Program-made: the position numbers and the translations under genes
Notes under the pieces: generated by a model
What the model was told of the DNA's origin: nothing
Seen by the model: the letters and a program-made list of their open reading frames with translations, nothing else
The model's database searches: none
NCBI GenBank assembly: GCA_047967505.1
Contig: CM106538.1
Reading direction: 5' to 3' (one strand)
DNA from: Dipteris shenzhenensis
Lineage: Eukaryota
DNA: 64,000 nucleotides
Part shown: positions 2,334 through 42,122 of the stretch, piece by piece
Layout: every line of letters begins with the position of its first letter
How positions within the stretch are numbered: the stretch's first letter is position 1

Positions 2334-4915
2334 TGTAAGAAAACAATACAACGTCTGTGCTCAACAGATAACAGGATCTCGTATGCAAGAGAGAAAAGCA
2401 GATAGTATGGAGAATAAAAAATTTGATTACTGTAAAACTGATACAATAGATGGCGCTGCCTTCCAGCCGTGCGCTCCTGTGAAAGAAGCTTTGATGGCGA
2501 GCTAGAAACAGTAGAAGACGGAGGCTGGATGCTAAGGAATCAGGGTTGCTGTAGCCAGTGATAAAATGGGCTTCACGGGCTTGCTCTTATATAGCCACCA
2601 GTCATAGTCGGTTAGACTCAATTGGGTGACCGACCCAGTCTGCCCAAAACGGTCGACTGAGGGTTGGTCCCGAAATAGGCCACCGACCACACGATAGAAC
2701 CGTGGCGCAAAATAGAGCAACTAACCTACGTTGTCCGTTCGGCCCAGAGCCATCCGGGTGTTAGAATTATAAATATAATTCAGCAGTGACCAATGTAATT
2801 TAATAAGCTAGTTAGGGGCACTTTTCCCTCTTTAAGAGGTTTTTTCCCCTAACCGCAGTTAGTTCACTAACTATGGTTAGTGACTACTAAGGTTTTGTCA
2901 CTAGGACAAAACCTTATCTCTCACTCTTTATGTTGTACTCTTTACACTCTTCTATTGCAACTCAGCTCTCAAGCTTTCAGCTCTCCAGCTCTCTCGCTCT
3001 TGCTCTCTCTCTCTCCCCAATCTCTCACATTTGGTATCAGAGCCTGTACGGAAGCAGGGCCTGTACGGAAGCATGGACAATGACCTGCTGTACGGCTTGT
3101 ACGCGCAGGTACGGATGGTGACAGTGAACCGTACGGATGGTGACAGCGAACCGTACGCGCAGGTACGGAACTGTACGGCGAACTGTACAGTCTGGCAACG
3201 GATTGTACGGCTGAAGGTTTGTTGTACAGAATGGAGATGCAGAATGTACGTTGCTTCGCTTCTAATGACGACACATGAGCAGTACGACAGGGTACGGTAC
3301 GGCAGGTAGCAGGTATGGGTCAAACTTCGAGCAGGTACGGACGACAGGATGAAGCAGCAGGTGCACGAACTGTACGGGCATAAGGAGCTTGGGCTGATCC
3401 TGCTCCCTACTCCTTCCTCGTTGAGCTCTTGCCTCATTTCAAAGCTGATTTGCAGACCAACTTTGACATGTCAGATTTGGGGCTGCTTCACTTTTATTTG
3501 GGGATCCAGTTCTCTCATGAGAGACGTGGCACTGTTATGTCTCAGTCCAAGTGTGTGCAGAAACTCTTGGACAGATTTAACATGCATGATTGTAAGCCCA
3601 TAGCCACTCCCATGGAGCCGGGGCTGAAACTCACAATGCATGATGCAGGAGAATTAGTTGATGCCACACTTTACAGTCAGGCTGTTGGATGCCTCATATA
3701 TCTCTGCAACACTAGACCTGATATTCAGTTTGCAGTATCTCAAGTGAGCAGGTACATGCACAACCCAAAAACTATGCATTGGCAGGCAATTAAGCGCATC
3801 TTCCGTTATTTGCAGGGCACAAATCTTTTGGCTTGCTATTTCCCAAGGGGGGTGACTTGCAGATGCATGCCTACAGTGATTCAGATTGAGCTGGTGATTA
3901 TGACACTAGGCAGTCCACTAGTGGCAATTGTTTCTGTTTGGGTAAATCTTGCATTTCCTGGCTAAGCAAGAAACAATCTACAGTGGCTACCTCATCATGT
4001 GAAGCTGAGTACAAGGCAGCTTTCACAGCAACAATTGAATGTGTCTAGCTGCGACGTCTATTTGCTGATCTTCATCTGTCTTTGGAGGGTCCTTCTCCAA
4101 TTCTCACTGATAGTCAGAGTGCCATTGCAGTGGCAAAGAATCCAGTGTTTCATGCTCGCACGAAGCACATTGAGGTTCACTATCACTACGTCAGAGAGAA
4201 GTTGCATGCAGGAGAGATCAGTATGATCTTTGTGTCCACACATGACAACGTTGCAGATATTTTCACCAAAGCACTACCACGTGAAAAGTTTGAGGCATTT
4301 CGCAGTGCCCTGAACTTATATCCTTTTGGTGATTGATCAGCCTTGTACATGACATTGGCACTGCACGGGGTAACCAATGTAATTTAATAAGCTAGTTAGG
4401 GGCACTTTTCCCTCTTTAAGAGGTTTTTCCCCCTAACCGCAGTTAGTTCACTAACTATGGTTAGTGACTACTAAGGTTTTGTCACTAGGACAAAACCTTA
4501 TCTCTCACTCTTTGTGTTGTACTCTTTACACTCTTCTATTGCAACTCAGCTCTCAAGCTTTCAGCTCTCCAGCTCTCTCTCTCTTGCTCTCTCTCTCTCC
4601 CCAATCTCTGACACCGGGATCATCTGGGGCTCCAAACGGGCCCCGCAACCGGAGAGTGGACTGCCCCGGGAGATGCTCCGTCTACCCTCAATGCAGTCAG
4701 TCATGGGATGCCTTCCCGCACTTGCATGTAGCCTAGTTGGCAGTGTGCCAACTCCGTCCAGCCATCAGGCCTCACTTGGCCCCCATCTGGTGTCCAAACC
4801 AGGACCTATCGGATAACCGAGCTACTCAAATGCCTTCTCCTCATATAGGGGGCTTACAAGTAGAGTTAGCTGGTTCCCGCGTAGTTACACGAGAGTGGAG
4901 CATTGATATCTAACA
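2334..4915 (-). repeat. 5' LTR of copia A (about 720 bp: 2334-2758 plus 4619-4915), split by inserted element B
   Basis: Starts TGTAAG directly after the PBS and ends ...CTAACA at 4915, giving TG...CA termini. TATATA-like box near 2588. Interrupted at the CCGGG TSD. Confidence 0.75.
2759..4613 (+). mobile_element. Non-autonomous copia deletion derivative B (1.86 kb) retaining only the C-terminal RT and RNase H
   Basis: 5' LTR 2759-3029 (TGTTAG...CACA); PBS 3032-3043; near-identical 3' LTR ~4370-4613 lacking its first ~27 bp; TSD CCGGG at 2754-2758 and 4614-4618. RT end (FDMSDLGLLHFYLGIQ...YLCNTRPDIQFAVS) and RNase H (SKKQSTVATSSCEAEY...KHIEVHYHYVRE...ADIFTKAL). Confidence 0.93.
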
Positions 4916-5570
4916 TGATAACCGGTACGATAATTGAGGCAGCAAACTTGGCTCAGGATGACTGGCCATTTGTTTGACCTGCCATTACAATCTAGAGATA
5001 CAAGCTTCAACTTTATCTATTTCAGATTCTAAGTCAACCTGGTATTTTGATAGCGGTGCTTCTAAGCACATTACCTGCTGTAAATCTCTATTTCAGTCCT
5101 TGAGTGTTGCTCCACATGGGGGCATTGTCACTTGTGCAAACAATGCAGCACATCCCGTGAAAGGGATTGGTGAGGTGCTAGTCACATCAATGCCAGGTGA
5201 TACAATGACACTTGTGGAAGTTATTTGTGTCCCACGATCAAGAAGAATCTGATTTCTATTTCAGGCATCTCCACAAATGGCTTCAGAGTTCTTTTTGACG
5301 GTCATCGTTGTGCCATGTATGATAACCCGTACGATAATTGTATAGTACTCACTAGGACACTTGAAAGCAGACTGTATCACTTGATATCTTTGAAAAACAT
5401 GCTGCTATAGAAGCTAATGCCATTGTTGAATCTGTGATTTTCGATAATGAATTATGGCATGAGAGATTGGGACATCTAAACTTTAACAGTTTTGGTGAAG
5501 ATGCATTCAAAGGACATGGTACCACCCATGCATGTAATTACAAAACAGGGTTTCTTATTAGGGAAAATGC

Positions 5571-8500
5571 TGTTAGAAATGACCCAACAGAGGGTACACG
5601 CAGCGGAAGACTTATAGTAAAGCCCAGGAGCTCACACAGTGTGCTGTGTGGGTGTGGAATCACAAACTTCTTTACTTATGTGCATTCAATAGATGTGCAG
5701 ACTCATCATTAGACAATGAACCAGCCAGATACAGAAACCACCAAAATATATATTTCCGTCCACAACTATGGACACAATACAAAACAGACATATCCAGAGT
5801 CCCACCAATGATGTGGTCCTCTGATCTTACCACAAGGTCCTCCTCCTATCTGCTGGCTACCTCCAGATTCGAGTCCGCGTGCTCCACTTGGAGCTTCTGT
5901 AGACTTTCTGTCCAGTGAGTTCTTCTCCACCTTACTGCCTGTGAATCAGCCTAGGTGGGCAGCCCTTGCCAAGCTTTGTCTACAGCACACAGGTCCCCTT
6001 GGTCCTCCTGAATGTAGGCCCCAAGATAACTGTTCCACTGCTCCAACCTGCTTGTGAATGGCTGCTCCAGAAGATGATGATCTCAGCAACCTTCTGCCCT
6101 AGAAGACAGTCTAGGTTCAGCCTCTCCCTGGAGCTAAGTCTGCAGCACTCTTTAGGTCTCCTTCACCTCCTGGAAAAAGGCCCAAGGAAGCCCTATCTAC
6201 TGCTCCTGTCTGCTCCTCCAAAGCTGCTCTGCTGGATATTGAAATGAGGCCTGAGCCTCTCCTTTTATAGGCCCTGACGCCTAGCAAAAATACCGACTGG
6301 TCAGCCCTATTTTGGCCGACTCAGTCTGTCTAAAAACCGACCTGGTTGGCTGTCCCTACCAGCCCAACCAGGGCCCTATATAAGGGACTTCACTAGGCCC
6401 TTTGCAGCCTTTGTTCCAGGCAGGGACCCAGCCCTCTTGACCAGCCTAACCAAAACCTGGTTGGCTGGCTCAACCAGCCCCAACCAGCTCTACTGTTGGC
6501 CGACCTGTTTGCTGATCTGTCCCGCCATATTCCTGCGCCATCTTTAGGGTATGTTGCAGGCCATGTGCCTACCCACACGCCTTGCCAAATAGCTTGCCAT
6601 GTAGGCGCCTGTGCCCCGGGATACCCTGCCATCTTGTGCTGCTCCAGATATGTCTCTTCCAGGCCAGATCTATGCCATGTATGCATCGCCATCTGCCATG
6701 GTCTCGACGCCATGTGTTGCAGCCACTTTGATGCATCCAGGTACTTTCCTTTTTCTCTCTGATCTTTGCCCCCATGGCAGCCATCTTGCTGCCCATGTGG
6801 CCATCCCTCAGGACCCAGGTCCACCTCCCCCATGCTCTCCTCATTTGGGTCTTACAAATGGGGAGGTGACCTTTCCAACACCCCCTCTCACCGACACATC
6901 CAGGGCCAATGCCAACACGTCGATGAAGATGCTCCAGTAACTCCCTGGTCCTAGTCCTCTAGAACTTTTCGGTGTCGAAATCTTTTCCTGGCTTTTCATC
7001 CAGTGGCTCCTGCTCCACCACGTCCAGTTCCACTTCTGCACACCATCCTGGTACACAGGTCCATCTTTGGTGGCACCTCCTGGCACCACCATCTTCCGTC
7101 ACATTCCTGCCTTCGAACTCGAGCAATCCTGCCGTCACGATCTTCCACTCGTCCCCTCATAATGAGTGAACAACCTGGAATCTTCCAGGCACCATGCTCT
7201 GAGGGTCTGTTTCAACCCGTCCTTCCTTTGGCAAGGTCTGCAACAAAAGTACATCTCCACATAACCTGGACTGCGAACTTTAAACGCACCTGACTGAACC
7301 TGAGTCACCCTCCTCCTCGCAAGGGCACAATCCTCCAGTCGTGGAAGTCGATTCGCTAGAGCTTCTGAATCAGGGCTGTCCTTCAGCAAGGTCCCTGCCT
7401 TCAGGCTCCCACACCTGTGAGCCTCCTACTTGGGCTCTGATACCATGTTAGAAATGACCCAACAAAGGGTACACGCAGCGGAAGACTTATAGTAATGCCC
7501 AGGAGCTCACACAGTGTGCGGTGTGGGTGTGGAATCACAAACTTCTTTACTTATGTGCATTCAATAGATGTGCAGACTCATCATTAGACAATGAACCAGC
7601 CAGATACAGAAACCACCAAAATATATATTTCCCTCCACAACTATGGACACAATACAAAAGAGACAGATCCAGAGTCCCACCAATGATGTGGTCCTCTGAT
7701 CTTACCACAAGGTCCTTCTCCTATCTGCTGGCTATCTCTAGACTCGAGTCCGTGTGCTCCACCTGGAGCTTCTGTAGACTTTCCGTCCAGTGAGTTCTTG
7801 TCCACCTTACTGCCTGTGAATCAGCCTAGGTGGCAGCCCTTGCCAAGCTTTGTCTGCAGCACACAGGTCCCCTTGGTCCTCCTGAATGTAGGCCCCAAGA
7901 TAACTGTTCCACTGCTCCAACCTGCTTGTGAATGGCTGCTCCAGAAGATGATGATCTCAGCAACCTTCTGCCCTAGAAGACAGTCTAGGTTCAGCCTCTC
8001 CCTGGAGCTAAGTCTGCAGCACTCTTTAGGTCTCCTTCACCTCCTGGGAAAAGGCCCAAGGGAGCCCTATCTGCTGCTCCTGTCTGCTCCTCCAAAGCTG
8101 CTCTGCTGGATATTGAAATGAGGCCTTACCCTCTCCTTTTATAGGCCCTGAGGCCTGGCAAAAATACCGACTGGTCAGCCCTATTTTGGCCGACTCAGTC
8201 TGTCTCAAAACCGACCTGGTTGGCTGTCCCTACCAGCCCAACCAGGGCCCTATATAAGGGACTTCACTAGGCCCTTTGCAGCCTTTGTTCCAGGCAGGGA
8301 CCCAGCCCTCTTGACCAGCCTAACCAAAGCCTGGTTGGCTGGCTCAACCAGCCCCAACCAGCTCTACTGTTGGCCGACCTGTTTGCTGAGCTGTCCCGCC
8401 ATATTCCTGCGCCATCTTTAGGGTATGTTGCAGGCCATGTGCATACCCACACGCCTTGCCAGATAGCTTGCCATGTAGGCGCCTGTACCCCGGGATACCC

Positions 8501-11500
8501 CGCCATCTTGTGCTGCTCCAGATATGTCTCTTCCAGGCCAGATCTATGCCATGTATGCATCGCCATCTGCCATGGTCTCGACGCCATGTGTTGCAGCCAC
8601 TTTGATGCGTCCAGGTACTTTCCTTTTTCTCTCTGATCTTTGCCCCCATGGCAGCCATCTTGCTGCCCATGTGGCCATCCCTCAGGACCCAGGTCCACCT
8701 CCCCCATGCTCTCCTCATTTGGGTCTTACAGATGGGGAGGTTACCTTTCCAACACCCCCTCTCACCGACACATCCAGGCCCAATGCCAACACGTCGATGA
8801 AGATGCTCCAGTAACTCCCTGGTCCTAGTCCTCTGGAACTTTTCAGTGTCGAAATCTTTTCCTGCCTTTTCATCCAATGGCTCCTGCTCCACCAGGTCCG
8901 TTTCCGCTTCCGCACACCATCCTGGTACACAGGTCCATCTTTGGTAGCACCTCTTGGCACCACCATCTTCCGTCACATTCCTGCCTTCGAACTCGAGCAA
9001 TCCTGCCGTCACGATCTTCCAGTCGTCCCCGTCATAATGAGTGAACAACCTCGAGTCTTCCAGGCACCATGCTCTGAGGGTCTGTTTCAACCCGTCCTTC
9101 CTTTGGCAAGGTCTGCAACAAACGTACATCTCCACATAACCTGGACTGCGAACTTTAAACGCACCTGACTGAACCTGAGTCACCCTCCTTCTCGCAAGGG
9201 CACAATCCTCCAGTCGTGGAAGTCGATTCCCTAGAGCTTCTGAATCAGGGCCGTCCTTCAGCAAGGTCCCTGCCTTCAGGCTCCCACACCAGTGAGCCTC
9301 CTACTTGGGCTCTGATACCATGTTAGAAATGACCCAACAAAGGGTACACGCAGCAGAAGACATATAGTAATGCCCAGGAGCTCACACAGTGTGCGGTGTG
9401 GGTGTGGAATCACAAACTTCTTTACTTATGTGCATTCAATAGATGTGCAGACTCATCATTAGACAATGAACCAGCCAGATAGAGAAACCACCAAAATATA
9501 TATTTCCGTCCACAACTATGGACACAATACAAAAGAGACAGATCCAGAGTCCCACCAATGATGTGGTCCTCTGATCTTACCACAAGGTCCTTCTCCTATC
9601 TGCTGGCTATCTCTAGACTCGAGTCCGCGTGCTCCACCTGGAGCTTCTGTAGACTTTCCCTCCAGTGAGTTCTTTGTCCACCTTACTGCCTGTGAATCAG
9701 CCTAGGTGGGCAGCCCCTGCCAAGCTTTGTCTAAAGCACACACGTCCCCTTGGTCGTCCTGAATGTAGGCCCCAAGATAACTGTTCCACTGCTCCAACCT
9801 GCTTGTGAATGGCTGCTCCAGAAGATGATGATCTCAGCAACCTTCTGCCCTAGAAGACAGTCTAGGTTCAGCCTCTTCCTGGAGCTAAGTCTGCAGCTCT
9901 CTTTAGGTCTCCTTCACCTCTTGGGAAAAGGCCCAAGGAAGCCCTATCTGCTGCTGCTGTCTGCTCCTCCAAAGCTGCTCTGCTGGATATTGAAATGAGG
10001 CCTGAGCCTCTCCTTTTATAGGCCCTGAGGCCTGGCAAAAATACCGACTGGTCAGCCCTATTTGTGCCGACTCAGTCTGTCTCAAAACCGACCTGGTTGG
10101 CTGTCCCTACCAGCCCAACCAGGGCCCTATATAAGGGACTTCACTAGGCCCTTTGCAGCCTTTGTTCCAGGCAGGGACCCAGCCCTCTTGACCAGCCTAA
10201 CCAAATCCTGGTTGGCTGGCTCAACCAGCCCCAACCAGCTCTACTGTTGGCCGACCTGTTTGCTGAGCTGTCCCGCCATAATCTTGCGCCATCTTTAGGG
10301 TATGTTGCATGCCATGTGCGTACCCACACGCCTTGCCAGATAGCTTGCCATGTAGGCGCCTGTACCCCGGGATACCCCGCCATCTTGTGCTGCTCCAGAT
10401 ATGTCTCTTCCAGGCCAGATCTATGCCATGCATGCATCGCCATCTGCCATGGTCTCGACGCCATGTGTTGCAGCCACTTTGATGCGTCCAGGTACTTTCC
10501 TTTTTCTCTCTGATCTTTGCCCCCATGGCAGCCATCTTGCTGCCCATGTGGCCATCCCTCAGGACCCAGGTCCACCTCCCCCATGCTCTCCTCATTTGGG
10601 TCTTACAGATGGGGAGGTTACCTTTCCAACACCCCCTCTCACCGACACATCCAGGCCCAATGCCAACACGTCGATGAAGATGCTCCAGTAACTCCCTGGT
10701 CCTAGTCCTCTGGAACTTTTCAGTGTCGAAATCTTTTCCTGCCTTTTCATCCAATGGCTCCTGCTCCACCAGGTCCGTTTCCGCTTCCGCACACCATCCT
10801 GGTACACAGGTCCATCTTTGGTAGCACCTCCTGGCACCACCATCTTCCGTCACATTCCTGCCTTCGAACTCGAGCAATCCTGCCGTCACGATCTTCCAGT
10901 CGTCCCCCTCATAATGAGTGAATAACCTCGAGTCTTCCAGGCACCATGCTCTGAGGGTCTGTTTCAACCCGTCCTTCCTTTGGCAAGGTCTGCAACAAAC
11001 GTACATCTCCACATAACCTGGACTGCGAACTTTAAACGCACCTGACTGAACCTGAGTCACCCTCCTTCTCGCAAGGGCACAATCCTCCAGTCGTGGAAGT
11101 CGATTCCCTAGAGCTTCTGAATCAGGGCCGTCCTTCAGCAAGGTCCCTGCCTTCAGGCTCCCACACCTGTGAGCCTCCTACTTGAGCTCTGATACCATGT
11201 TAGAAATGACCCAACAAAGGGTACACGCAGCAGAAGACTTATAGTAATGCCCAGGAGCTCACACAGTGTGCGGTGTGGGTGTGGAATCACAAACTTCTTT
11301 ACTTATGTGCATTCAATAGATGTGCAGACTCATCATTAGACAATGAACCAACCAAATAGAGAAACCATCAAAATATATATTTCCGTCCACAACTACGGAC
11401 ACAATACAAAAGAGACAGATCCAGAGTCCCACCAATGATGTGGTCCTCTGATCTTACCACAAGGTCCTTCTCCTATCTGCTGGCTATCTCTAGACTCGAG

Positions 11501-14384
11501 TCCGCGTGCTCCACCTGGAGCTTCTGTAGACTTTCCGTCCAGTGAGTTCTTCTCCACCTTACTGTCTGTGAATCAGCCTAGGTGGGCAGCCCCTGCCAAG
11601 CTTTGTCTGCAGCACACAGGTCCCCTCGGTCCTCCTGAATGTAGGCCCCAGCCCCAAGATAACTGTTCCACTGCTCCAACCTGCTTGTGAATGGCTGCTC
11701 CAGAAGATGATGATCTCAGCAACCTTCTGCCCTAGAAGACAGTCTAGGTTCAGCCTCTCCCTGGAGCTAAGTCTGCAGCACTCTTTAGGTCTCCTTCACC
11801 TCCTGGGAAAAGGCCCAAGGAAGCCCTATCTGCTGCTCCTGTCTGCTCCTCCAAAGCTGCTCTGCTGGATATTGAAATGAGGCCTGAGCCTCTCCTTTTA
11901 TAGGCCCTGAGGCCTGGCAAAAATACCGACTGGTCAGCCCTATTTTGGCCGACTCAATCTGTCTGAAAACCGACCTGGTTGGCTGTCCCTACCAGCCCAA
12001 CCAGGGCCCTATATAAGGGACTTCACTAGGCCCTTTGCAGCCTTTGTTCCAGGCAGGGACCCAGCCCTCTTGACCAGCCTAACCAAAGCCTGGTTGGCTG
12101 GCTCAACCAGCCCCAACCAGCTCTACTGTTGGCCGACCTATTTGCTGAGCTGTCCCGCCATATTCCTGCACCATCTTTAGGGTATGTTGCAGGCCATGTG
12201 CCTACCCACACACCTTGCCAGATAGCTTGCCATGTAGGCGCCTGTACCCCGGGATACCCCACCATCTTGTGCTGCTCCAGATATGTCTCTTCCAGGCCAG
12301 ATCTATGCCATGTATGCATCGCCATCTGCCATGGTCTCGACGCCATGTGTTGCAGCCACTTTGATGCGTCCAGGTACTTTCCTTTTTCTCTCTGATCTTT
12401 GCCCCCATGGCAGCCATCTTGCTGCCCATGTGGCCATCCCTCAGGACCCAAGTCCACCTCCCCCATGCTCTCCTCATTTGGGTCTTACAAATGGGGAGGT
12501 GACCTTTTCAACACCCCCTCTCACCGACACATCCAGGCCCAATGCCAACACGTCGATGAAGATGCTCCAATAACTCCCTGGTCCTAGTCCTCTGGAACTT
12601 TTCGGTGTCGGAATCTTTTCCTGGCTTTTCATGCAGTGGCTCCTGCTCCACCAGGTCCGGTTCCGCTTCCGCACACCATCCTCGTACACAGGTCCATCTT
12701 TGGTAGCACCTCCCGGCACCACCATCTTCCGTCACATTCCTGCCTTCGAACTCGAGCAATCCTGCCGTCATGATCTTCCAGTGGTCCCCCTCATAATGAG
12801 TGAACAACCTGGAGTCTTCCAGGCACCATGCTCTGCGGGTCTGTTTCAACCCGTCCTTCCTTTGGCAAGGTCTGCAACAGAAGTACATCTCCAGATAACC
12901 TGGACTGCGAACTTTAAACGCACCTGACTGAACCTGAGTCACCCTCCTTCTCGCAAGGGCACAATCCTCCAGTCGTGGAAGTCGATTCCCTAGAGCTTCC
13001 GAATCAGGGCCGTCCTTCAGCAAGGTCCCTGCCTTCAGGCTCCCACACCTGTGAGCCTCCTACTTGGGCTCTGATACCATGTTAGAAATGACCCAACAGA
13101 GGGTACACGCAGCGGAAGACTTATAGTAATGCCCAGGAGCTCACACAGTGTGTGGTGTGGGTGTGGAATCACAAACTTCTTTACTTATGTGCATTCAATA
13201 GATGTGCAGACTCATCATTAGACAATGAACCAGCCAGATAGAGAAACCACCAAAATATATATTTCCCTCCACAACTATGGACACAATACAAAAGAGAGAG
13301 ATCCAGAGTCCCACCAATGATGTGGTCCTCTGATCTTACCACAAGGTCCTTCTCCTATTTACTGGCTATCTCTAGACTGGAGTCCGCGTGCTCCACCTGG
13401 AGCTTCTGTAGACTTTCCGTCCAGTGAGTTCTTCTCCACCTTACTGCCTGTGAATCAGCCTAGGTGGGCAGCCCCTGCCAAGCTTTGTCTACAGCACACA
13501 CGTCCCCTTGGTCCTCCTGAATGTAGGCCCCAAGATAACTGTTCCACTGCTCCAACCTGCTTGTGAATGGCTGCTCCAGAAGATGATGATCTCAGCAACC
13601 TTCTGCCCTAGAAGACAGTCTAGGTTCAGCTTCTTCCTGGAGCTAAGTCTGCAGCTCTCTTTAGGTCTCCTTCACCTCCTGGGAAAAGGCCCAAGGAAGC
13701 CCTATCTGTGCTCCTGTCTGCTCCTCCAAAGCTGCTCTGCTGGATATTGAAATGAGGCCTGAGCCTCTCCTTTTATAGGCCATGAGGCCTGGCAAAAATA
13801 CCGACTGGTCAGCCCTATTTTGGCCGACTCAGTCTGTCTCAAAACCGACCTGGTTGGCTGTCCCTACCAGCCCAACCAGGGCCCTATATAAGGGACTTCA
13901 CTAGGCCCTTTGCAGCCTTTGTTCCAGGCAGGGACCCAGCCCTCTTGACCAGCCTAACCAAAGCCTGGTTGGCTGGCTCAACCAGCCCCAACCAGCTCTA
14001 CTGTTGGCCGACCTGTTTGCTGAGCTGTCCCGCCATATTCCTGCGCCATCTTTAGGGTATGTTGCAGGCCATGTGCGTACCCACACGCCTTGCCAGATAG
14101 CTTGCCATGTAGGCGCCTGTACCCCGGGATACCCCGCCATCTTGTGCTGCTCCAGATATGTCTCTTCCAGGCCAGATGCCATGTATGCATCGCCATCTGC
14201 TATGGTCTCGACGCCATGTGTTGCAGCCACTTGATGCGTCCAGGTACTTTCCTTTTTCTCTCTGATCTCTGCCCCCATGGCAGCCATCTTGCTGCCCATG
14301 TGGCCATCCCTCAGGACCCAGGTCCACCTCCCCCATGCTCTCCTCATTTGGGGGCTTACATATGGGGAGGTGACCTTTCCAACA
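5571..14384 (-). mobile_element. Tandem-array non-autonomous LTR retroelement: 5 LTRs and 4 short internal domains, period about 1877 bp
   Basis: LTRs at 5571-6880, 7446-8754, 9321-10631, 11198-12513 and 13080-14384, each TGTTAG...CAACA. Internal segments at 6881-7445, 8755-9320, 10632-11197 and 12514-13079, each with minus-strand PPT (TGAGAGGGGG) and PBS (TGGTATCAGAGC). Single TSD AATGC at 5566-5570 and 14385-14389. No gag/pol motifs. Confidence 0.97.
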
Positions 14385-14747
14385 AATGCATCGGTTCCAT
14401 TTCCAAAAGATGGAAAGTTGGTGCATCCAAGAAGTTGCACCTAGTACATAGTGATGTATGTGAGCCAATCCGGATAGCGTCACTTGGAGGCTACTACTAC
14501 TTTGTTATTTTTGTGGATGACTTCACTAGATTCACTTGGATTTATCCCATGAAATTGAAGTTAGACGTCTTCCTAGCTTCAAGCATTTGCATTAGCAGAG
14601 AATGAGAGTGGGGAAATGCTCTTGACCCTCCGCATTGATAGGAGGGGTGAGTACTTATCCCGTGAATTTTCTGATTTAAGTAGCACAGGGTATCATACAT
14701 TAGTGCACAGTGCCATACACTCCGCAACAACATGGACCTGCAAAGCA

Positions 14748-14957: not shown

Positions 14958-15279
14958 GCAGAGCAGAAAAATAGAAAAAAATAGGAAGTGGGCAAGTGCA
15001 TGCTTCAACAGAAGTCCGCACCCAATAAATTCTGGTTGGATGATGTTATGGCTCAACTGAGCACCCACTCAAGCATTGAAGACCATGACTCCTTATGAAG
15101 CATGGACAGACCGAAAGCCTGTAATTTCTCATATGTGGGTGTTTGGATCTCTTGCATATGCGCATGTACCCTCTCAGCTGATGCATAAGCTTGATGATAA
15201 GGGCATCAAATGCATTTCCATTGGCTACAACTCACAGAGCAAAGGATACAGGTTGTTTCATCCTAGCAGAAGCAAGATG

Positions 15280-15635
15280 GATACTCTAGGTGCTTGCTTC
15301 AAGCCATACAAGGCTTTCTTCAACTTGCAAACAAACTCAGGATGAACAGCATGAACATAACCTAGTGGCTGCTCCATAAAGACCTCTTCTTGCAAATCAC
15401 CATGCAAGAAGGCATTCTTTACATCCATCTGATGTAAAGACCATCCCTTTGATGCAGCCATAGCAATGACTGCTCTTACGGTTGCCATCCTTGCAACTAG
15501 GCTGAATGTTTCTTCATAATCAATGCCATATGTCTGTGCATACCCCTTGACAACTAATCTTGCCTTGTATCTGTTCACAGAACCATCTGCATTGTGTTTC
15601 ACCTTATAAACCCACTTACAGCCAATTGCATACCC
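15280..15635 (-). mobile_element. Inverted, stop-free copia RT fragment embedded in the host copia
   Basis: [43 protein letters not shown]...[23 protein letters not shown]...[14 protein letters not shown] on the minus strand; no LTR or TSD seen. Confidence 0.9.
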
Positions 15636-16935
15636 AACAGCAAGCAAGCTGAGCCCTTGGACCAGAGGTACAAAAATAAAATGCAGGTCAATTTGCTTCA
15701 TGTTGCTTTGATTGATACTGCTTATAATGAGGAACCTCTCTATCATAAGCATGCATTTGATAGTAGAGAATGGATGGATTCCATGAAAGCTGAACTTGAT
15801 TCCATTCATTCAAATGGCACATGGGAGTTGTGTGACTTACTAAGTGGGTCTACAAATTGAAGTGGAAAGCTGATGATAGTGTTCACCGCTACAAAGCCCA
15901 CCTTGTTGTGAAAGGCTATGCCCAACAACATGCATTGACTTGGAGAAGTTCCCGCATTACGACCATTCGTTGAGTTATTGCTCTCAATATCTCACAAGCG
16001 TTGGGAGGTCCATCAGCTAAATATTAAGATTGCTTTCCTTCACGAGAACTTAATGGAAGAGGTCTATGTCACTTAAGAGTCCAGGATTTGAAGTTGCAGG
16101 TTCTGAAACAAAGGTATGCGGGCTGAAAAAGGCCCTCTATGGTTTGAAGCAGGCACCACGGGCATGGTATGCCAAGATACATTCTTTTTTTCTATGCCTT
16201 GGGTTTTAGAACAGCCCTAGAGAGGCCACTCTTTATGTCCAAAAGAATGAATCAGAATTTCTGGTTTGGATTCTTTATGTGGATGGCATGCTTATCACTC
16301 GGCCAAATACCTAGAAACTTGCAAATTTCAAGGCAGATTTGCAGAAATCATTTGAAATGTCAGATATGGGCAGGTTACACTACTATTTGGGCATCCAGTT
16401 TGCTAATGTTGAAGGGGGCATAATAATGAGTCATATTCAAAAGCTCTTGCAGTGCTTCCAATTCGAGGATTATATGCAAGTTTCTACACCATTTCGTTTT
16501 CCACTCAAGATGGGCGTGTCCCATCTGATGCCACTCTTTATTAGCACATTGTGGGCTGCCTTATTTACTTATGTCATACTCAGCCTGATCTGCAGCATGC
16601 CATTTCCCAGTTAAGCAGACACATGCACAAGCCAAGCACATAGCATTGGCAGGCAGTGAAGTGAGTCTTCCATTACTTGAAGGCCACGCAGCATTTGCGA
16701 CCATTCTATAGTGATCAGTCTTCATTGGATTTGCGTGCATTCATGGATAGTGATTGGGCAAGTTGTTATGACACCCGTGTGTCAGACAGTGGCAGCTATT
16801 TCATGCATGGCTCTTCATGCATCTCTTGGTTTAGCAAGAAGCAGTCTACAGTTGCTACTTCCAATTGTGAAGCTGAGTATAGTGCAGCCTTCACAGCTAT
16901 AGTTGTGTGTGTTTGGCTTTAGAAGTTGCTCTCAG

Positions 16936-20925: not shown

Positions 20926-23453
20926 TGTTGGAGATAAGTGCACACTAAATGTACTATTTCCCTAGTCTACATTTGTCTAAGTCTAGTCTAGTCTTTGTGT
21001 CTTGAGTGTGTGCCATGTGGCACCTCTACAATTATCCCATAAGCACTCTTGCTTTATGTCTTGTACTTTGGCCCATATATTCATGGGTCACATCATTGCA
21101 ATCTATCTATCTAGCTTGTGTCTTGTCTACACTCTTCTCAAGGTACTTCTTGTCTTTCAATCTTGTTATTATTTCACTTCTAGTTTTCTAGTTTCTAGTT
21201 CTTGCTTCCATATTCCAACATGGTATCAGAGCTAGGTTGATCCTTCTTCTCTTCCCTCAGTCTGCTGTAGCCATAGCTGTCTCTTCTCAAATTTCTCCCC
21301 CGCTCAGCTGGTCGCCATCTTCATCTTCTGCCCGTCTTCTCCACGCTGCTGCCGTTCCTGCTGCCGCTGCAGATCTGCCCGCCATCTCTCTGCCACGCTG
21401 CTGCCATTCCTGCTGCCGCTGCAGATCTGCCCACCATCTCTCTGCCAGATCTGCACGCCATTGCGCTGCCAGATCTGCTGCGCAGTTCTGCTCTCTGCCA
21501 GATCTGCGCGTCAGATCTGCACAGATCTGGCGCTGCTGTAGCTCCTGCTCTTGCTGTCGCTGCTGTAGCTCCCGCTCCTGCATCAACGAACAAACATTTC
21601 GAAGCACAGTCAAGACTGTCCGTACAGTCCGTACGACTGTACGGAATCCATACCTGCACAAGCTGCTGTTCGCGATCTCCGCCATCTTCACGGAGATCTG
21701 CGCCATCTGTTCGTGACTGCACGGAGCTCGCACTGCCTGCACCTCCTGGACCGCGCTCCTTTTTGTGCCTCTGCCTCTGCCTGGGATTAAGGTACTGTGC
21801 ATTGCCTCTTTCAGTTTGCTGAGCAGTTCCTTTTTTTTTGCTGGTTCCTCCTGCTTCGATGGGCTGTCACATGCTATGGCCTTGACAAAGTGGTGAGAGA
21901 ACCGGCTTCTTGGATCTCTCCTTTCATTCATTTTTGCAATAATTGTAAGGGAATAGACACTGCCCTTGCATCTTAGCAAGAGGTAAGACCTTCCCACATG
22001 GCATCTTTCTCTCATTCTCTCATGTCTATCGACAAATTCAATGGGTCCAACTTTCATACTTGGCAAATCAAAATTAAGTGCCATCTTATGAAAGAAGGTC
22101 TTTGGGACATTGTTCACCGTGCTGCTCCCGAAGATCCCGACATTGAGCAAGCTGTCACTGCCAAGAACGACAAAGCCTATGCTATCATCTTGCTCGGTCT
22201 TGGAGATGATTACATTCATCACATCTCCGACATACAGTCTGCTCCTCAAGCATGGATCACTTTGGATACCCTTTTTGGACCCCGATCTAAAAACTCTAAG
22301 ATTGCACTTATGATCTCATTCTTTGATCTACATATGCAGGAAGAGGCTACTATAGCCTCTCATGTCAATTATCTTCGCAGTCTTATGGTTCAGTTTGCAT
22401 CAGTAAAGTCTCCCATCTCCGAAGATATTGCTATTGCTGTGCTTCTCAAAAGCTTACCTGACACCTATGCTACTCTTGTCACTACCTTCAAGTATCACAA
22501 TAATCCTTCTCTTGAAGGTATCATCAATGCTCTCCAAGAGGAAGAAAGAACTCAACAACGAAAGGTAACTGACACTGCATTTTTAGCAAAGAAAGGAAGT
22601 TCTAAGGTAAGAAAGCCTTGCACCCATTGTGGCAAAACTAATCATATGCAGAAGGACTGTTTCAAGGCTCATCCATGCACCATTTGTGGTCGTGATAATC
22701 ACCGGGAGAGGGACTGCTACTCCAAACCCTCTACATCAGCCCCTGCATCTACCTCAGCCCATGTTGCTGCAACATCTCCATCAGCTGATCCTATTGTTCC
22801 TTCCTCACATGATGAGAAGTGGGCTTTCTGATTACTTCTATTTCTTGTCTACCACTTTGACCACCGATGATGTAGGTCAAGGGGTTCTAGTGTCTTGGTC
22901 TTTCTGTTTGTCTACAGTCAGTCTTCTGTCTATCTAGTCTTATCTGTCTGTCTATTTGTCTATCAATCTGACTATGTTTTGTTTTAGATCCATCTTGTCC
23001 CTACCCTTGTGGACCCATATGAGGATATCACTTGAGGAGGGGTGTCTCAGGATCTTTTGTCTGTTATGTCTTCTATCTTGTCTCTCAGTCTATCAGTCTT
23101 TATGTCTGTCTTCTAGTCTTGTCTTTCTGTCTTACTCCTAGTGTCCACTTAAGGAGGGTATTGGAGATAAGTGCACACTAAGTGTACTATTTCCCTAGTC
23201 TACATTTGTCTAAGTCTAGTCTAGTCTTTGTGTCTTGAGTGTGTGCCATGTGGCACCTCTACAATTATCCCATAAGCACTCTTGCTTTATGTCTTGTACT
23301 TTGGCCCAGATATTCATGGGTCACATCATTGCAATCTATCTATCTAGCTTGTGTCTTGTCTACACTCTTCTCAAGGTACTTCTTGTCTTTCAATCTTCTT
23401 ATTATTTCACTTCTAGTTTTCTAGTTTCTAATTCTTGCTTCCATATTCCAACA
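20926..23453 (+). mobile_element. TR-GAG-type element (copia-type LTR element encoding Gag only), 2.53 kb
   Basis: 295-bp LTRs at 20926-21220 and 23159-23453 (about 5 differences by eye). PBS 21221-21232; PPT AAGGAGGG before the 3' LTR; TSD TGGAG at 20921-20925 and 23454-23458; no pol sequence. Confidence 0.95.
21998..22831 (+). CDS. gag: Intact copia-type Gag (277 aa) with two CCHC zinc knuckles
   Basis: ATG-to-stop ORF; IDKFNGSNFHTWQIKIKCHLMKEGLWDIV N-terminal motif; LLKSLPDTYATLV; CTHCGKTNHMQKDC and CTICGRDNHRERDC. Confidence 0.93.
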   Translation: MASFSHSLMSIDKFNGSNFHTWQIKIKCHLMKEGLWDIVHRAAPEDPDIEQAVTAKNDKAYAIILLGLGDDYIHHISDIQSAPQAWITLDTLFGPRSKNSKIALMISFFDLHMQEEATIASHVNYLRSLMVQFASVKSPISEDIAIAVLLKSLPDTYATLVTTFKYHNNPSLEGIINALQEEERTQQRKVTDTAFLAKKGSSKVRKPCTHCGKTNHMQKDCFKAHPCTICGRDNHRERDCYSKPSTSAPASTSAHVAATSPSADPIVPSSHDEKWAF

Positions 23454-24372: not shown

Positions 24373-24740
24373 TGTACCAAGCTTCGGTTTTTGACCCCAC
24401 CTGCAACTGATTTGATTCAATTTGCACTTGATTGATTGATGATGATCATTATGATTTTGCTAGTATAGATCAAGACTCAGCAAGGGCCCTAGTGCACCCT
24501 TTGCTCCAGCCCACTGAGGCTTGCATGAGTCTCCTTTCTTTTGTGCACTCTGTCCCATAGGCTCGCGAGGCCTCCTGCGGACGTTAATGCATCTTTCTTT
24601 CTTTCTTTTCTATGTATGCTGCCCACATGGCAGCCAAAGTGCTGCCCGTGTGGCAACCACATCATCTCTAGGTTCACACCCCCCATGCTCTCCTCATATG
24701 GGGGCATACATATGGGGAGGTGACCATACGATTGCCAACA
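24373..24740 (-). repeat. LTR fragment related to the tandem-array LTR, with PPT-like sequence and internal remnant at 24741-25290
   Basis: CCCCCATGCTCTCCTCATATGGGGGCATACATATGGGGAGGTGACC...CCAACA closely matches the array LTR end at 14330-14384. Left boundary is uncertain. Confidence 0.7.
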
Positions 24741-25620: not shown

Positions 25621-26387
25621 GTGTACTGTAACGTGTTACTGAAGAGGTCTTTATAGAACATTGATCACCTAAGGATATTTGGCTCCAAGGCTGAATCACT
25701 GACGCCAAAATTTTCTAAAAACTAGTTTGACACCTCATTGAAAGTGACACTAATGATTAACATGGACTGATACGTCATACATACATCTAACAGCTTCTTG
25801 ACTCTCCATTTAAGGAAAGAGTGTATCATTCCCCTAACGACATTTCTTTACACTCTAAACATCGATAAATATCATGAACCAAAAGCCATAAGCCTTCCCA
25901 CTTTTTCATGCATATATCTTCCAAGACGTGCCTCTTCTTTTCCTACCTACTTCAAAAACTATGATACACCTAATCTGCTTCACTTATTTATTGCTAATAG
26001 CCTCTATTCATCTTCCTACTTAATTATGGAAGGTTTGCAAATTTTCACAAAATAGATATCCTTTGTTGGTATCAAATTTTTGATTCTCAGCATGCTTTGC
26101 TTTTAAAAAGCTTTGAATTTCCATACATACACATTCATTCTATTAACACTGAAATTTCTCTGTCTTATCTCAAAATTACATATAGAATAGGGCATTAAAG
26201 TTATCGCGACGGCGACGCATTAGAGGACGGCGTGTGACTCCTAGGAAAAGCTGTCACCCTTGCAAAATGAAAATAAGTGACGAGCATCCACTCAAAAAAA
26301 GACTAAATATAACCATAATACATGGGGAAGAAAAATTATGCTCCATGAAAATTGAAAATAACAAGAGGATGTCAGATAGCAACATAC

Positions 26388-26609
26388 AATCTCTTCAAAC
26401 ATAGTGATGCCTTGGCTGTTAGCTATGCGTTGCATACCGAGCTCTTGCCGAATAGCTCGGGTCCGATCAAAAAGGAAGTCATAAACCACTGCAAATGAGA
26501 ATTCATTATCATCTAAAAGATTTAGAAGATATTGCAGTGTGCTCCATAATACAAGCAATGGGCGCACATCAGATGACTGCAACGTTACACCCGAAAATGT
26601 TCTACAAAA
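26388..26609 (-). CDS. SAC3C: SAC3 family protein C (SAC3/GANP domain), coding exon 3
   Basis: FCRTFSGVTLQSSDVRPLLVLWSTLQYLLNLLD...VVYDFLFDRTRAIRQELGMQRIANSQGITMFEEI; TTGCAG acceptor and GTATGT donor; 222 nt, in frame with exon 2. Confidence 0.93.
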
Positions 26610-28624
26610 CTGCAAAGCCAGAACATAAAAAGTCATTGCCTGGATAAAAATCCAAAAGGATCCTGAAAAAAAACTTGCATCTCTAACATTCATCGTCACA
26701 ATATAAACAAGAGTTTTGCTTCAGAAGAATCCACTCATCAAAACTGTAAAAATAAAACTAGGAAAAAGAGACGACATGTTATTGGTGTCCACAAAATGTT
26801 CCCAGCACTTGCAAAGTCTCCCATCTAAAGATCTCTGCTAGATATTCAGATATTAAAGTCAGTCTCACATCTTTCTCAGATAACTGCCTCAAAGCAATCC
26901 ATGATCATGTAGCATTTACAATCAAAGCTGCCTCATATGCCCCCAAAAAGAAGAAGATTGTCTTCCCAACCCCAGCAAAATATGGCCGAATTCATCATGT
27001 TAAACCATAGCATTTATTGCAATTTTGGCGTACAAAAAGTACCCATAAGGTCAGAAATCATAAACTTATTCTTGCATTGCAAGGCTATGTACTTTGGGCC
27101 TCAGCAATGACTCCATCATACTCCAATAGCGGAAAGTAGATCCAACACACACACAACTACACAATACTAAATATCTATCTGAAGTCTAGGCATGCTCACT
27201 TCTAGTGAAAATTAATGAGATGTAGCTCTTTAAGTTGAGGTGGTTAGAGAGGATGCATCCTTGGGGCGACTTTTCATACTGTGCTGGACTTAGAGTGGAA
27301 GTTCCATTAAAAGTTGACTTAGTTATGCCAGCTCTATAAAAAGGCATGTTCCATGTTTACAGTTTTGTCCCAGTCATTTTTGCTTGTCCGTCTAAATATC
27401 AAACCCCATCTTTCAGTAAAACTTTGCGATACACATTACACATCAATTCAGCACTGTGGATCTATGGCTCTCCATTCGCACGTGATTTCCTTCGATTGGT
27501 ATCAAAGAAGCTTTCTTGCCTGTATAAAGGTGCTGAAAGGGTTGCAAAAGAAAGCTTCTGTGGAAGCACCCAATGACAAACCCTAGCTTATTGTGGCATG
27601 ATGGACTCTTCACTTGTGTAGCTGGAAGATGTTCACAATGATTTTAGGTTGATTTGCATATGGCTCAACAAGGTCCTAAGCCAAATCAAGGCTGTTATGC
27701 TGCTCCAAATGCTGCCCCCTCCCACTTGTGGTGGGCTGACCCAGACCTAGATTGGCCCACTGAGGTGCCATCTGGCCAACTCTACATCTGTTCTGGACCC
27801 ACTCAAGGGCCTACCAACCCCTGCTGGCTGACCTGCTATTTTGGCTGACCAGTTCCAGGGCATCGAGCTCCCTGCCAAGCCTCCATTTGTCCTGTTGCTG
27901 GGCTCCCTGCCAAGCAACACATCAATGCATTCAAGATATGAAAAGAAAGAATCTCTCCATACTCTCATGCTTCGGAGTCACCCTGGGCAAACTTCACCAA
28001 ATAAGAGTGGTTATTGTCCACCATGGGCAGATTCAATTCCGACAATAAAGTTGTGAGTACTAGCATTGTCAAAAGTAACATTTACATAATGGTCATCAAC
28101 GGTTCTACGCATTCGTAAAACATCATGCAAATCAAACATCAACGTAAATAAACCACAACTATCACAAATTACACCAGTAGATTACAAGTCAATGCTGGAA
28201 AGTTCAGCAGACATAACTGGCATGGGGTCGTTAGTTGTATGCACCACTATACATTTCCCCCTATCAGTATTCTTTTTGCGGGGCACAAGCAAAGGGATGG
28301 CTCCCTATCTATGGTCGAGACCCACACCTGGTGCACCTTTGTTGCCATGCGACGTGATGGTATCATCATATGTTTTCGCAAAGCGGACTACCTCGTCAAG
28401 GCGAGCCTTTGATAGTCTCTTGGGAGACCATTGTAGTAGTATAATCACCACACCGGAATAAAAGGGCTGATCAAAAGAAAAAGGAGAACTAGTCTAAGGA
28501 AGATGAGCTTGATGAACAAACAACTAATATGGTCAAGGTGTTCTTAGTGATTTCTCCAAGTAGCCCTAAAATCAAATATGTAGACCACAAAGTGGCAACG
28601 CTATGTATGCAACACCTTTCTGAG

Positions 28625-29530: not shown

Positions 29531-30757
29531 ACAGACTTCTATGCATCTAACATTTCTCTCCCTCGCTCTCCCCTACCCATTCTCCTCTCTTCTTCCCCTA
29601 TCTCTCTCTCTAAGGAATATATTTTGCTGCCTCCATTGCTAAGTACTTCTCCAAACTTGTGTGTGTTCTTCACCTGGTTGTGTCATCTGTGAGAACATTA
29701 AGTTGCGGAAGTTTGGTTCCAGCAAGTAAACTTGCATGTGTTCTTGACCTACTTGTGTGTACAGGGTAGCGCCATCTGTGAGAACATTCCGTGTGGGAGT
29801 TGGGTTCCCGCAAGCATCCCCTTTATATTTCTGACCCATGGCAAGTGCTATTCATGAATATGTAGAGGTTAGAGGACTTGATACTTAAAGCCCAATATGT
29901 TTTTTCCTGCGCGTATATTATCTTATGTAGCTTTATTGTTGGCAATGAAGTTTCTCACTCTGTTTTGTCGTCCCGTAGTTTCCATAGTGCAAATACTTCT
30001 CTTAAATGTAAGAAATATTTGGCTATAAAGGATCCACCCCAGCATCGCAGTTATTTCAAGAGTGTTCTTGAAGTCCTGAACAAGAACAAGTAACAAGAAA
30101 TTAAGGAGCATCTCATCTAGTGATATTGGATGCCATGATGCTTTTGGATACCATGACTGCAAAAGCTGATTGGAAGGTCATACATCGTGGCAGGATAAAT
30201 GGCAAGATGCAAAAGTTCATATAAGTTGAATTCTAAAGGAAAGCATTCTTGTACTATCCCAGAGATGGAAGTCTACACTGGAATAAAAAATGAAAGAAAG
30301 GTGGCTCTTTGAGCCTTTACTGATAGACTCTGCCTTGATGACGAGCAACAAATACACTAAAAAGACAAAGGCAGTCAAAGTTGACATCGGACTTCTTATT
30401 CTCAAGCTATGATTCTGGAATAAGCAACCCAGCCCTGCCATCTTCCTGTGTGTTAAGTAGAGCTCTTTTTTGCTCTAGTCATCATAACAATGAGCTGCTC
30501 AAGAATTAGCTGAAGAAGGTAATTAGCTTTCTTCCTAAACAGTAATAGATCATGCTCCTTGTCTCTAACAAACCTAAATAAGGAAGAGAGGAATAAGCTC
30601 CATCATAGGAACACAGAAAGTAGCACACAGAAAAACACGCAGAAAAAGCTGACGGGAGAGTTGACAGTTTCAGTATAGAAGTAACTAGCTCAAAGGATTT
30701 CCTAGTCCTACACGTGTGCATGATAAGGAGCATGATCAATTTAGAAAAGCCCAGTAC

Positions 30758-30858
30758 CTTCTTTACAGCAAGCTCTCTTGACGTCTTTCTGGGATTTCCA
30801 TTGAGACGCTCAAAAACAGCAAGGTCTCTTAGCCTCTCTCGTTGTTCCCGCTCTTTGA
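30758..30858 (-). CDS. SAC3C: SAC3 family protein C, coding exon 2 (absent from the ORF track)
   Basis: CAG acceptor at 30861-30859 and GT donor at 30757-30756; 101 nt encoding (V)KEREQRERLRDLAVFERLNGNPRKTSRELAVKK, which matches the plant SAC3C motif RERLRDLAVFERL.GNP as I recall it. Confidence 0.93.
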
Positions 30859-30980
30859 CTGCCCTGTCACAATTGGCATAATTAGTAGCAGGCTTTGTAA
30901 GCTGGCAGATCCCACCTTACTGGAAGAGGGGACAAAAGTGTTGCCCTACATCAATAAGTCATAGGAAGCACCTATCTTAC

Positions 30981-34029: not shown

Positions 34030-34112
<83 letters not shown>

Positions 34113-34431
34113 GGGGGATGTTTTTTGGGGAGCATCTTTTGGCGAGCTTGCCCAAAAATGGCGAGCATACTCTCTCTCTTCCCTCTTCTCTCTTTGAATG
34201 TATGTTTCCCTCTCTCTAATCGCACATGTACTCGCTCTTCTTCATATATATATATATATATATATAGGGGGATGTTTTTTGGGGAGCATCTTTTGGCGAG
34301 CTTGCCCAAAAATGGCGAGCATACTCTCTCTCTTCTCTCTTCTCTCTTTGAATGTATGTTTCCCTCTCTCTAATCGCACATGTACTCGCTCTTCTTCTCT
34401 ACTCCCGTCTACCCAGTCATCCCCCTTTCAC

Positions 34432-41900: not shown

Positions 41901-42122
41901 TCAGTATGCAGGGTTTTGAGGCTTTTTGTCACCTACAGATATATTGGGGTTGTTGTTTGTAGTATACGTGTAGCTTAGGACCTCGAGTAATGTTTTGGTG
42001 AGAGACGTAGGCTTAAGTGTGGTAAGCAAACATAGTGCATGCATGTGTAAAAGGAACGTGTATCATCATGGTTGAGGTAATGAAGGCTTTCGTCTTCATA
42101 AGGGGTTGCAGGGTTTAGGAGA

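Follow-up and report, generated by a model that had tools for sequence, protein, structure and literature searches.

Positions 5571-14384 of a 64,000-nucleotide stretch of DNA (contig CM106538.1, hereafter the window) are occupied by a tandem array of a long terminal repeat (LTR) retrotransposon, arranged L-I-L-I-L-I-L-I-L, where L is an LTR and I is an internal region. This array is a tandemly arranged non-autonomous LTR retrotransposon. It very probably represents one integration of a non-autonomous, non-coding element into an older copia integrase gene. The full explanation that we propose, namely a single integration, early unequal exchange between LTRs and later conversion, is on balance probable. 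The array is real, and its architecture is already established in plants and ordinary in kind. Thus, the preliminary description of this DNA stands in so far as it recognized a tandem, non-autonomous array with a single target-site duplication (TSD) in a copia integrase. The novelty that it claimed does not stand, because precedents have been published, including a maize array with five LTRs and four internals.

Structure of the array

Repeat self-comparison resolved the interval into five register-locked LTRs and four internal regions, with a start-to-start period of 1874-1882 bp (4.7 units). It should be mentioned that Tandem Repeats Finder missed the array solely through its maximum period of 500. 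When anchored on the terminal motifs, the LTRs are 1305-1316 bp and the internal regions 565-566 bp, in agreement with the five LTRs of about 1.31 kb and four internals of about 565 bp in the preliminary description. LTR sequence makes up 70% of each 1.9-kb unit, and every LTR between neighbouring units is common to both. All five LTRs possess TG..CA termini (5/5) and are 97-98% alike, no extra bases are present at the internal LTR boundaries, and the units differ by 2-4%, mostly via private changes. Direct reading and a script both placed the TSD, AATGC, against the two ends of the array, at 5566-5570 and 14385-14389; it is the sole TSD around the whole 8.8 kb, as had been claimed. The G+C content of the array is 0.53, compared with about 0.45 in the surroundings, and its plus strand has a strong C-over-G skew. 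The components are listed below, together with the complements of the polypurine tract (PPT) and the primer-binding site (PBS).

5566-5570, no strand: left copy of the TSD, AATGC (read directly and by script)
5571-6880, minus strand: LTR1, 1310 bp, 3'-most on the element's strand (contigs from other loci end at 5570/5571 and 6880)
6881-7445, minus strand: internal region 1, 565 bp (PPT complement 6881-6889, PBS complement 7434-7445)
7446-8754, minus strand: LTR2, 1309 bp, common to units 1 and 2 (fewest private changes, 5 columns)
8755-9320, minus strand: internal region 2, 566 bp (PPT complement 8755-8763, PBS complement 9309-9320)
9321-10631, minus strand: LTR3, 1311 bp
10632-11197, minus strand: internal region 3, 566 bp (PPT complement 10632-10640, PBS complement 11186-11197)
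11198-12513, minus strand: LTR4, 1316 bp, with a private 6-bp insertion
12514-13079, minus strand: internal region 4, 566 bp (PPT complement 12514-12522, PBS complement 13068-13079)
13080-14384, minus strand: LTR5, 1305 bp, 5'-most on the element's strand, with a private 4-bp deletion
14385-14389, no strand: right copy of the TSD, AATGC (read directly and by script)

The element is oriented on the minus strand, a point absent from the preliminary description. On this strand, the PBS TGGTATCAGAGC directly follows the LTR end in all four units (in plus coordinates, its reverse complement occupies the final 12 nt of every internal region). The PPT GAGAGGGGG directly precedes the next LTR in all four (its reverse complement takes up the opening 9 nt). 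Their correct placement in each internal region, which had been reported, was thus seen in 4/4 and 4/4 cases, abutting the LTRs. The minus-strand termini are TGTTGGAA...TTCTAACA in four of the five LTRs, and LTR4 starts with TGTTGAAA. We take TGGTATCAGAGC to be assigned to initiator-Met tRNA; the window contains no tRNA gene for comparison with the PBS. The same 12-nt motif is the conserved, standard PBS of plant LTR retrotransposons (PMC7215508; this paper, like PMC11899658, PMC11042837, PMC13570524, PMC4717578 and the preprint 10.1101/452573, is cited here for portions of its text).

The array therefore shows the features of an LTR retrotransposon (TG..CA repeats, an adjacent PBS and PPT, and a TSD of 5 bp, within the usual 4-6 bp) and those that define a tandem one (three or more LTRs in alternation with two or more internal regions, an LTR common to neighbouring units, an LTR at both ends and a single TSD). 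A satellite or segmental duplication formed without retrotransposition is ruled out by the PBS, PPT, TG..CA termini and TSD, and by the family termini in other sequencing runs described below.

A motif scan of the element strand detected a candidate TATA box in 5/5 LTRs, at LTR position 612 (608 in LTR5).

6262-6269, minus strand: candidate TATA box TATAAAAG
8136-8143, 10013-10020, 11895-11902 and 13770-13777, minus strand: its candidate repeats in the other LTRs

Judged from this position, U3 would be about 640 nt and R plus U5 about 670 nt. Hexamers of the types AATAAA, ATTAAA and AATAAT are absent from the element strand of all five LTRs. Upstream of the candidate TATA box, at 6290-6500 and correspondingly in each LTR, U3 contains a cluster of inverted CCAACCAG/CTGGTTGG motifs, which are possibly transcription-factor sites. 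A search for Rfam RNAs, including 5S-like ones, gave no match at E <= 1 in 5300-14700.

The array interrupts a decayed copia integrase

We removed the array and one copy of AATGC by script. The frame then reads ..GKM/HRFHF.., where the slash marks the junction, so the rejoining of a host integrase proposed in the preliminary description was confirmed. The two flanks match successive parts of this host gene.

5365-5570, plus strand: GAG-pre-integrase part of a decayed Ty1/copia element, cut by the insertion (Pfam PF13976, gag_pre-integrs, E 5.8e-5)
14390-14605, plus strand: continuation of the host integrase, start of the rve core (Pfam PF00665, E 1.1e-4 and 5.5e-4)

Both matches are weak and stay under the cut-offs curated by Pfam, the reason being decay and frameshifts in the host copia element. 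An origin from two separate insertions by ectopic recombination is ruled out, since the TSD is common to both ends and both flanks rejoin one gene. Beyond the host integrase part, an RVT_2 match lies on the opposite strand at 15258-15809.

The element belongs to a dispersed family

Contigs from four independent public sequencing runs (X1-X4; four studies, two coded organisms) were aligned at >=90% likeness to positions 3000-7445, which comprise the host flank, LTR1 and internal region 1 and hold no internal repeat. The best share of sampled words was 0.12 among the five matching runs from which these four were taken, and the source sample may be among them. In the four runs, 464, 257, 147 and 123 contigs were aligned, of which 60, 37, 28 and 29 were >=99% alike. 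Both LTR and internal sequence are matched by contigs of the family: the LTR-to-internal junction is bridged by record 16 of X2 and record 23 of X3, and in one X1 contig the end of the internal region is joined back to the start of an LTR. Furthermore, there are two exact positions at which contigs pass into unrelated flanks that differ from one another: 5570/5571 (X2, X3 and X4) and 6880 (X1, five contigs; X3, two contigs). Because different flanks adjoin identical LTR termini, the termini are real and the family is dispersed. Thus, this element family is dispersed and mobile.

Other features of these alignments were set aside. The LTR stretch 6278-6724 is thinly covered in X1 and X2 and uncovered in X3 and X4, and one weak X1 contig skips 6274-6637; we conclude nothing from either. 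The loose ends at 7271 and 7275 in X4 were not used as a breakpoint to a longer relative, since a diverged copy clipped by the aligner would explain them equally well. A metagenome scan with protein patterns gave 45 pattern matches, of which 0 were confirmed as family. A scan of the metagenomes with a DNA pattern of the LTR terminus gave six loci, all of one unrelated sequence, and hence no family copy: these six contigs from sister samples (L001-L006) have only an exact 23-nt string in common with the LTR terminus, which we regard as a chance or terminus-motif coincidence.

An autonomous partner sharing the LTR ends and PBS, which the preliminary description had wished to see looked for, was sought within the window. 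No other match to the internal region was found there, and the only LTR-like match, at 24597-24725, is a remnant and not an element. The 130-bp remnant (24597-24740) is 75-79% similar to the U3-side end of the array LTR and terminates in ..GGGGAGGTGACC..TGCCAACA. This fragment, which derives from a related family, adjoins a SAC3/GANP host gene.

Divergence of the units and later recombination

We then compared the units with one another. Pairwise K2P distances between LTRs are 0.019-0.034 (mean 0.026). Of the 88 variable LTR columns, 73 are private to a single LTR (19, 5, 13, 19 and 17 in LTR1 to LTR5), which gives a star-like pattern; each internal region has 2-13 private columns. The internal lineages 1, 2/3 and 4 differ by 0.034-0.042, and the outermost pair, LTR1 and LTR5, differs by 0.031 (Fisher p 0.26-0.67). 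Since the internal lineages are statistically as diverged as LTR1 and LTR5, at least three units were present when the element integrated or shortly afterwards. The closest pair is not formed by the outer LTRs: their distance of 0.031 compares with 0.019-0.021 for LTR2 with LTR3, LTR4 and LTR5.

The internal regions 2 and 3 are exceptional. Their K2P distance is 0.0089, whereas that of the other pairs is 0.034-0.042 (Fisher p 0.0005-0.004). A scan statistic was calculated for the array compared with itself after a shift of one unit (6970 columns, 183 events, 5000 permutations). It detected a block of 920 columns with only 6 differences, as opposed to about 2.6% elsewhere, and 0 of the 5000 permutations matched it. 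The block begins 199 bp ahead of internal region 2 and ends 152 bp beyond that region.

8555-9473, minus strand: copy A of the low-divergence block, comprising the end of LTR2, internal region 2 and the start of LTR3 (scan statistic)
10432-11350: copy B, the partner of copy A (scan statistic)

This block therefore reveals homologous recombination inside the array after its formation. Given a length of half a unit, gene conversion suits better than the gain of a whole unit.

Internal region 1 could be compared with the family contigs at 7 of its 13 private letters (6905, 7021, 7026, 7032, 7148, 7355 and 7377). At all seven sites, the other letter is present in every covering contig of X1-X3 and in most of X4, which fits decay of the private letters in place. 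We used relative ages only, because absolute ages depend on the rate. A substitution rate of 1.3e-8 is typical of rice. At this rate, the array would be about 1 Myr old and the conversion about 0.3 Myr, and slower rates would give 2-3 Myr. Grass rates may not apply, however, given that the neighbouring host gene is most similar to fern proteins.

Origin of the five LTRs

Published routes to tandem arrays comprise unequal LTR-LTR exchange; template switching by RNAs that are packaged together (PMC1950507); multi-unit transcripts that stem from read-through or from circles (PMC11899658; PMC7215508); and insertion of cDNA at a resident copy by Rad52/single-strand annealing (PMC11042837). Recombination before integration is the subject of a preprint (10.1101/452573). 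All four published routes preserve a single TSD. In sugar beet, retention of the TSD in about 71% of tandems was read as intra-element recombination (PMC13570524). Template switching between two packaged RNAs yields a dimer with three LTRs (PMC1950507); therefore, a five-LTR array needs either a multi-unit template or later exchange.

We infer, with about an even chance of being right, that the multiplicity arose early, through unequal homologous exchange between LTRs that are long and were identical at first. Unequal exchange between sister chromatids or homologues would convert L-I-L to L-I-L-I-L, and further misaligned exchanges would add units early, while the LTRs were still near-identical. 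As the copies diverged, homologous exchange would become rare, and each unit would decay on its own, by 2-4%. The segment around internal regions 2 and 3 was made uniform again by one or more later recombination events, most simply by gene conversion over about 0.9 kb. The original TSD would be kept throughout because every event was internal to the insertion. Homologous exchange is most efficient between identical repeats, which predicts an early burst and then stasis. We favour early unequal exchange because of this efficiency, because the LTR is 70% of the unit and because recombination is visible at the locus.

Several observations weigh against this explanation. The star-like divergence equally fits an array that was born complete, and none of the features that we found tells early exchange apart from a concatemer at birth. 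In a simple unequal crossover, it is a whole 1.88-kb unit that is duplicated, and the only clearly younger block is half of that length; the block therefore shows conversion and not unit gain. LTR2 has only 5 private columns, compared with 13-19 in the others (chi-square p 0.049). Shared derived states occur in only 15 of the 88 variable LTR columns, and the clean left/right chimeras of stepwise crossover are absent. Finally, no contig crosses the junction between the host and LTR1 (bins 5086-5532 are almost empty), so that the reads leave the copy number unconfirmed. A rice study that covered six haplotypes at a single locus likewise failed to tell exchange from a concatemer at birth (PMC11899658).

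The missing junction contigs bear also on whether the true number of units is smaller, the count being inflated by the assembly or copies from other loci having been stitched in. Tandem repeats of 1.9 kb are prone to assembly error. An artefactual duplication would, however, give identical copies, whereas each unit here can be distinguished: 5-19 columns are private to each LTR and 2-13 to each internal region, and LTR4 and LTR5 have their own indels. Copies from other loci should be more divergent, as only 60/464, 37/257, 28/147 and 29/123 contigs are >=99% alike. Moreover, the same TSD is present at both ends and a single host gene is rejoined. An assembly artefact is thus highly improbable.

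A more serious competitor, although we consider it unlikely, is that the array was born as a concatemer: a multi-unit RNA would have been packaged in helper particles, reverse-transcribed and integrated once, with a single TSD. Such an RNA could be produced by read-through across the LTRs of an existing array, by transcription of a one-LTR circle or by repeated strand transfers. Plant poly(A) signals are loose. The missing poly(A) hexamers in all five LTRs would nevertheless fit weak termination, and a four-unit RNA of about 8 kb would lie within the RNA size of autonomous elements. A birth concatemer also agrees with the single TSD and with the star-like divergence, in which three or more internal lineages match the outer LTR pair in age. 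Read-through of one-LTR circles was suggested in the rice paper (PMC11899658), and concatenated Cassandra transcripts and an argument from particle capacity have been presented (PMC7215508). Against this idea, switching between two monomer RNAs gives three LTRs, so that a multi-unit template must already exist (PMC1950507). In contrast to the diagnostic of Sabot and Schulman, other LTR pairs are more alike than the outer one, and recombination has demonstrably acted at the locus after the array was formed.

The units might instead have been added stepwise, by homologous recombination or single-strand annealing of new cDNA with the resident copy at the PBS/LTR. As in Tf1/Tf2 and Ty1 of yeasts, each such event would be independent of integrase, add one more LTR-sharing unit and retain the original TSD. 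This is the recombination of cDNA into a resident copy that the preliminary description had entertained, and we regard it as improbable. The family is multi-copy, and is thus a possible source of cDNA. However, all seven checkable private letters of unit 1 look like decay in place rather than variants inherited from a source, and the units are about equally old, so that all additions would have to fall within a short burst. In addition, the cited portions of PMC11042837 and of the other papers present no demonstration of such addition in plants. Early unequal exchange followed by conversion remains our preferred explanation.

Coding content and a 318-codon open frame

Ten translated segments covering the internal region and the long LTR frames were searched for gag/pol or other Pfam domains, and 0 families were found at E <= 1. 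The internals had been called non-coding in the preliminary description. This holds with respect to Pfam domains and has to be qualified by a long stop-free frame in units 2 and 3.

8344-9300, minus strand: 318-codon stop-free frame, which covers internal region 2 and crosses the PPT

The frame starts 20 nt past the PBS-side LTR end and runs 411 nt into the U3 of LTR2. It is likewise open in unit 3, at 10221-11177, and is interrupted in units 1 and 4 by breaks private to each. Its length exceeds that in all 2000 + 2000 shuffled and simulated units (maxima 245 and 222), and 0 of 20000 shuffles of the frame region were stop-free (mean 15.2 stops); the other two frames contain 12 and 9 stops. In contrast to this length, the frame has no period-3 signal (P 0.30), no third-position excess among its copies (19/14/17) and no Pfam domain. 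The composition of its codon positions is flat, with 4.7% Trp and 4.7% Cys. A search for homologs at near or shorter lengths gave none except one stray open reading frame (ORF) of 124 aa. An exhaustive search of 1.84 billion representatives gave two matches, both singleton ORFs on metagenome contigs of 550 and 817 bp. The atlas model of the 124-aa homolog is unfolded (pLDDT 0.39, pTM 0.28), and its feature scores (<=0.81) are at the chance level.

Other open frames occur in the same LTR stretch. A second one of 152 codons (179 in LTR5) is present at 8267-8725 on the minus strand and at the equivalent positions in all five LTRs, and an overlapping plus-strand frame has 121 codons (109 in LTR5). 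The LTR stretch under these frames is rich in short GCCATGT/GCCATCT-like motif repeats, which leave two other frames open, and it seems to be generally stop-poor. The 318-codon frame is unexplained and probably non-coding. The combined proposal that transcription runs on across several units or round a one-LTR circle, that the family propagates as packaged concatemers of about 8 kb, that the array was born with five LTRs and that the frame encodes a real, lineage-specific product is improbable.

Comparison with known elements

The monomer equivalent of the element is 2 x 1.31 kb + 0.57 kb, or about 3.19 kb. With this length and an LTR of 1.31 kb, it falls outside the strict definition of TRIMs (terminal-repeat retrotransposons in miniature: <1 kb or <=1.5 kb, with LTRs of about 100-250 bp; size limits from PMC13570524). 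Large retrotransposon derivatives (LARDs) are >4 kb with a long non-coding internal region, and the element, with 565-566 bp and about 3.19 kb, does not belong there either. It is not a Cassandra element, since regular expressions for box A and box C gave 0 matches on both strands, and it is not a TR-GAG, since Retrotrans_gag and zinc-knuckle matches are absent; a neighbouring element at 20926-23453 has both. Ty1/copia elements are defined by the domain order PR-INT-RT-RH in pol, which this element lacks. Affinity to them is hinted at only indirectly, by the TGTTGG..CTAACA termini, which resemble the ends of the window's copia derivatives, and by the same PBS. The earlier statement that the array fits neither TRIM nor LARD is therefore correct by strict sizes. 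It does not make the element new, because a continuum of 1.5-4 kb has already been described: a 2026 survey of sugar beet reported many genuine non-autonomous families in this unnamed range (PMC13570524).

These sugar beet families are, like the array, non-coding and of intermediate size, with shared LTRs that alternate with internal regions. Their arrays have 3-21 LTRs of all LTR sizes, and the TSD is kept in 73/97 (PMC13570524). Sugar beet is a eudicot, whereas the present DNA is probably from a fern, and the likeness is drawn from descriptions and not from sequences. The maize Zma-SMART tandemly arrayed TRIM (TA-TRIM) of 2016 has the same five-LTR, four-internal (L5I4) structure with a single 5-bp TSD, is non-autonomous and was validated by PCR. 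TA-TRIMs have LTRs of about 100-250 bp and whole arrays of <1 kb, in contrast to the LTRs of 1.31 kb and the array of 8.8 kb here (PMC4717578). Cassandra (2020) is likewise non-autonomous, possesses the same PBS motif and forms arrays of at least 12 LTRs, including in ferns, for which the same two mechanisms were discussed; its LTRs carry 5S rRNA-like boxes A and C, which the array LTRs lack (PMC7215508).

Coding elements of rice, Arabidopsis, almond and cotton often form tandems with a single TSD (PMC11899658, 2025). Among these, TLI1, TLI2 and the IDENTAM candidates resemble the array in their single TSD, shared internal LTRs and nesting (TLI2 lies in a MULE). Their unit number varies between haplotypes, and the choice between tandem insertion and LTR-LTR recombination was left open (PMC11899658). 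All 28 of 28 curated rice tandems encode retrotransposon protein domains and are mostly gypsy/Tekay (PMC11899658), whereas the array has no recognisable coding domain and has copia-like termini. The Angela, Squiq and Opie complexes of Sabot and Schulman (2007) also show a shared internal LTR, a 5-bp TSD and one integration. However, they have three LTRs, two full coding cores and outer LTRs that are the most similar (PMC1950507), as opposed to five LTRs and an outer pair that is not the closest. The Tf1/Tf2 and Ty1 tandems formed by Rad52-dependent cDNA recombination are fungal, autonomous and experimentally shown (PMC11042837); ours is described from sequence alone. Among the papers listed by our literature searches, none dealt with tandem LTR arrays in ferns besides Cassandra. 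Supplementary tables of the cited papers may contain comparable families.

Other elements and genes in the window

Two further copia derivatives are present on the plus strand of the window. The first, at 2759-4613, is a deletion derivative of 1.86 kb with LTRs of about 270 bp and a CCGGG duplication at both sides. Its segments 2786-3029 and 4370-4613 are 98% alike, and the 3' LTR is without its first ~26 nt. The PBS TGGTATCAGAGC follows the 5' LTR, and pol is represented by the C-terminal RT/RNase H part only. The second, at 20926-23453, is a gag-only (TR-GAG-like) derivative of 2.5 kb. Its LTRs, each of 295 bp and 98% alike, have the termini TGTTGG..CCAACA; this PBS is present here too, as are a PPT and a TGGAG duplication at both sides. 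A zinc knuckle and Retrotran_gag_2 (E 1.5e-31) were detected in its ORF. On the minus strand, 26292-26720 and 30506-30916 are exons of a SAC3/GANP-family gene (Pfam E 8.8e-19 and 0.0034). Among named proteins, those of the ferns Adiantum (74-80% identity) and Ceratopteris (75%) are closest, followed by bryophytes, and the window is therefore probably fern DNA. Self-comparison also detected short local tandem duplications at 34089-34396, 51200-51623 and 42100-42311, including a 154-bp unit repeated twice (97-99%).

Significance

The array described here is a clean, fully resolved tandem LTR retrotransposon: it has five LTRs, its TSD is intact and its host can be dated. The array shows that the units of such an array can match the insertion in age and that conversion keeps acting within the array. 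The question for the field is whether arrays are inserted whole or grow in place, and a single locus cannot decide this. Because whole arrays fit inside single long reads, this family, with its LTR of 1.3 kb and core of 0.57 kb, would be a convenient test case once the whole genome and long reads are at hand.

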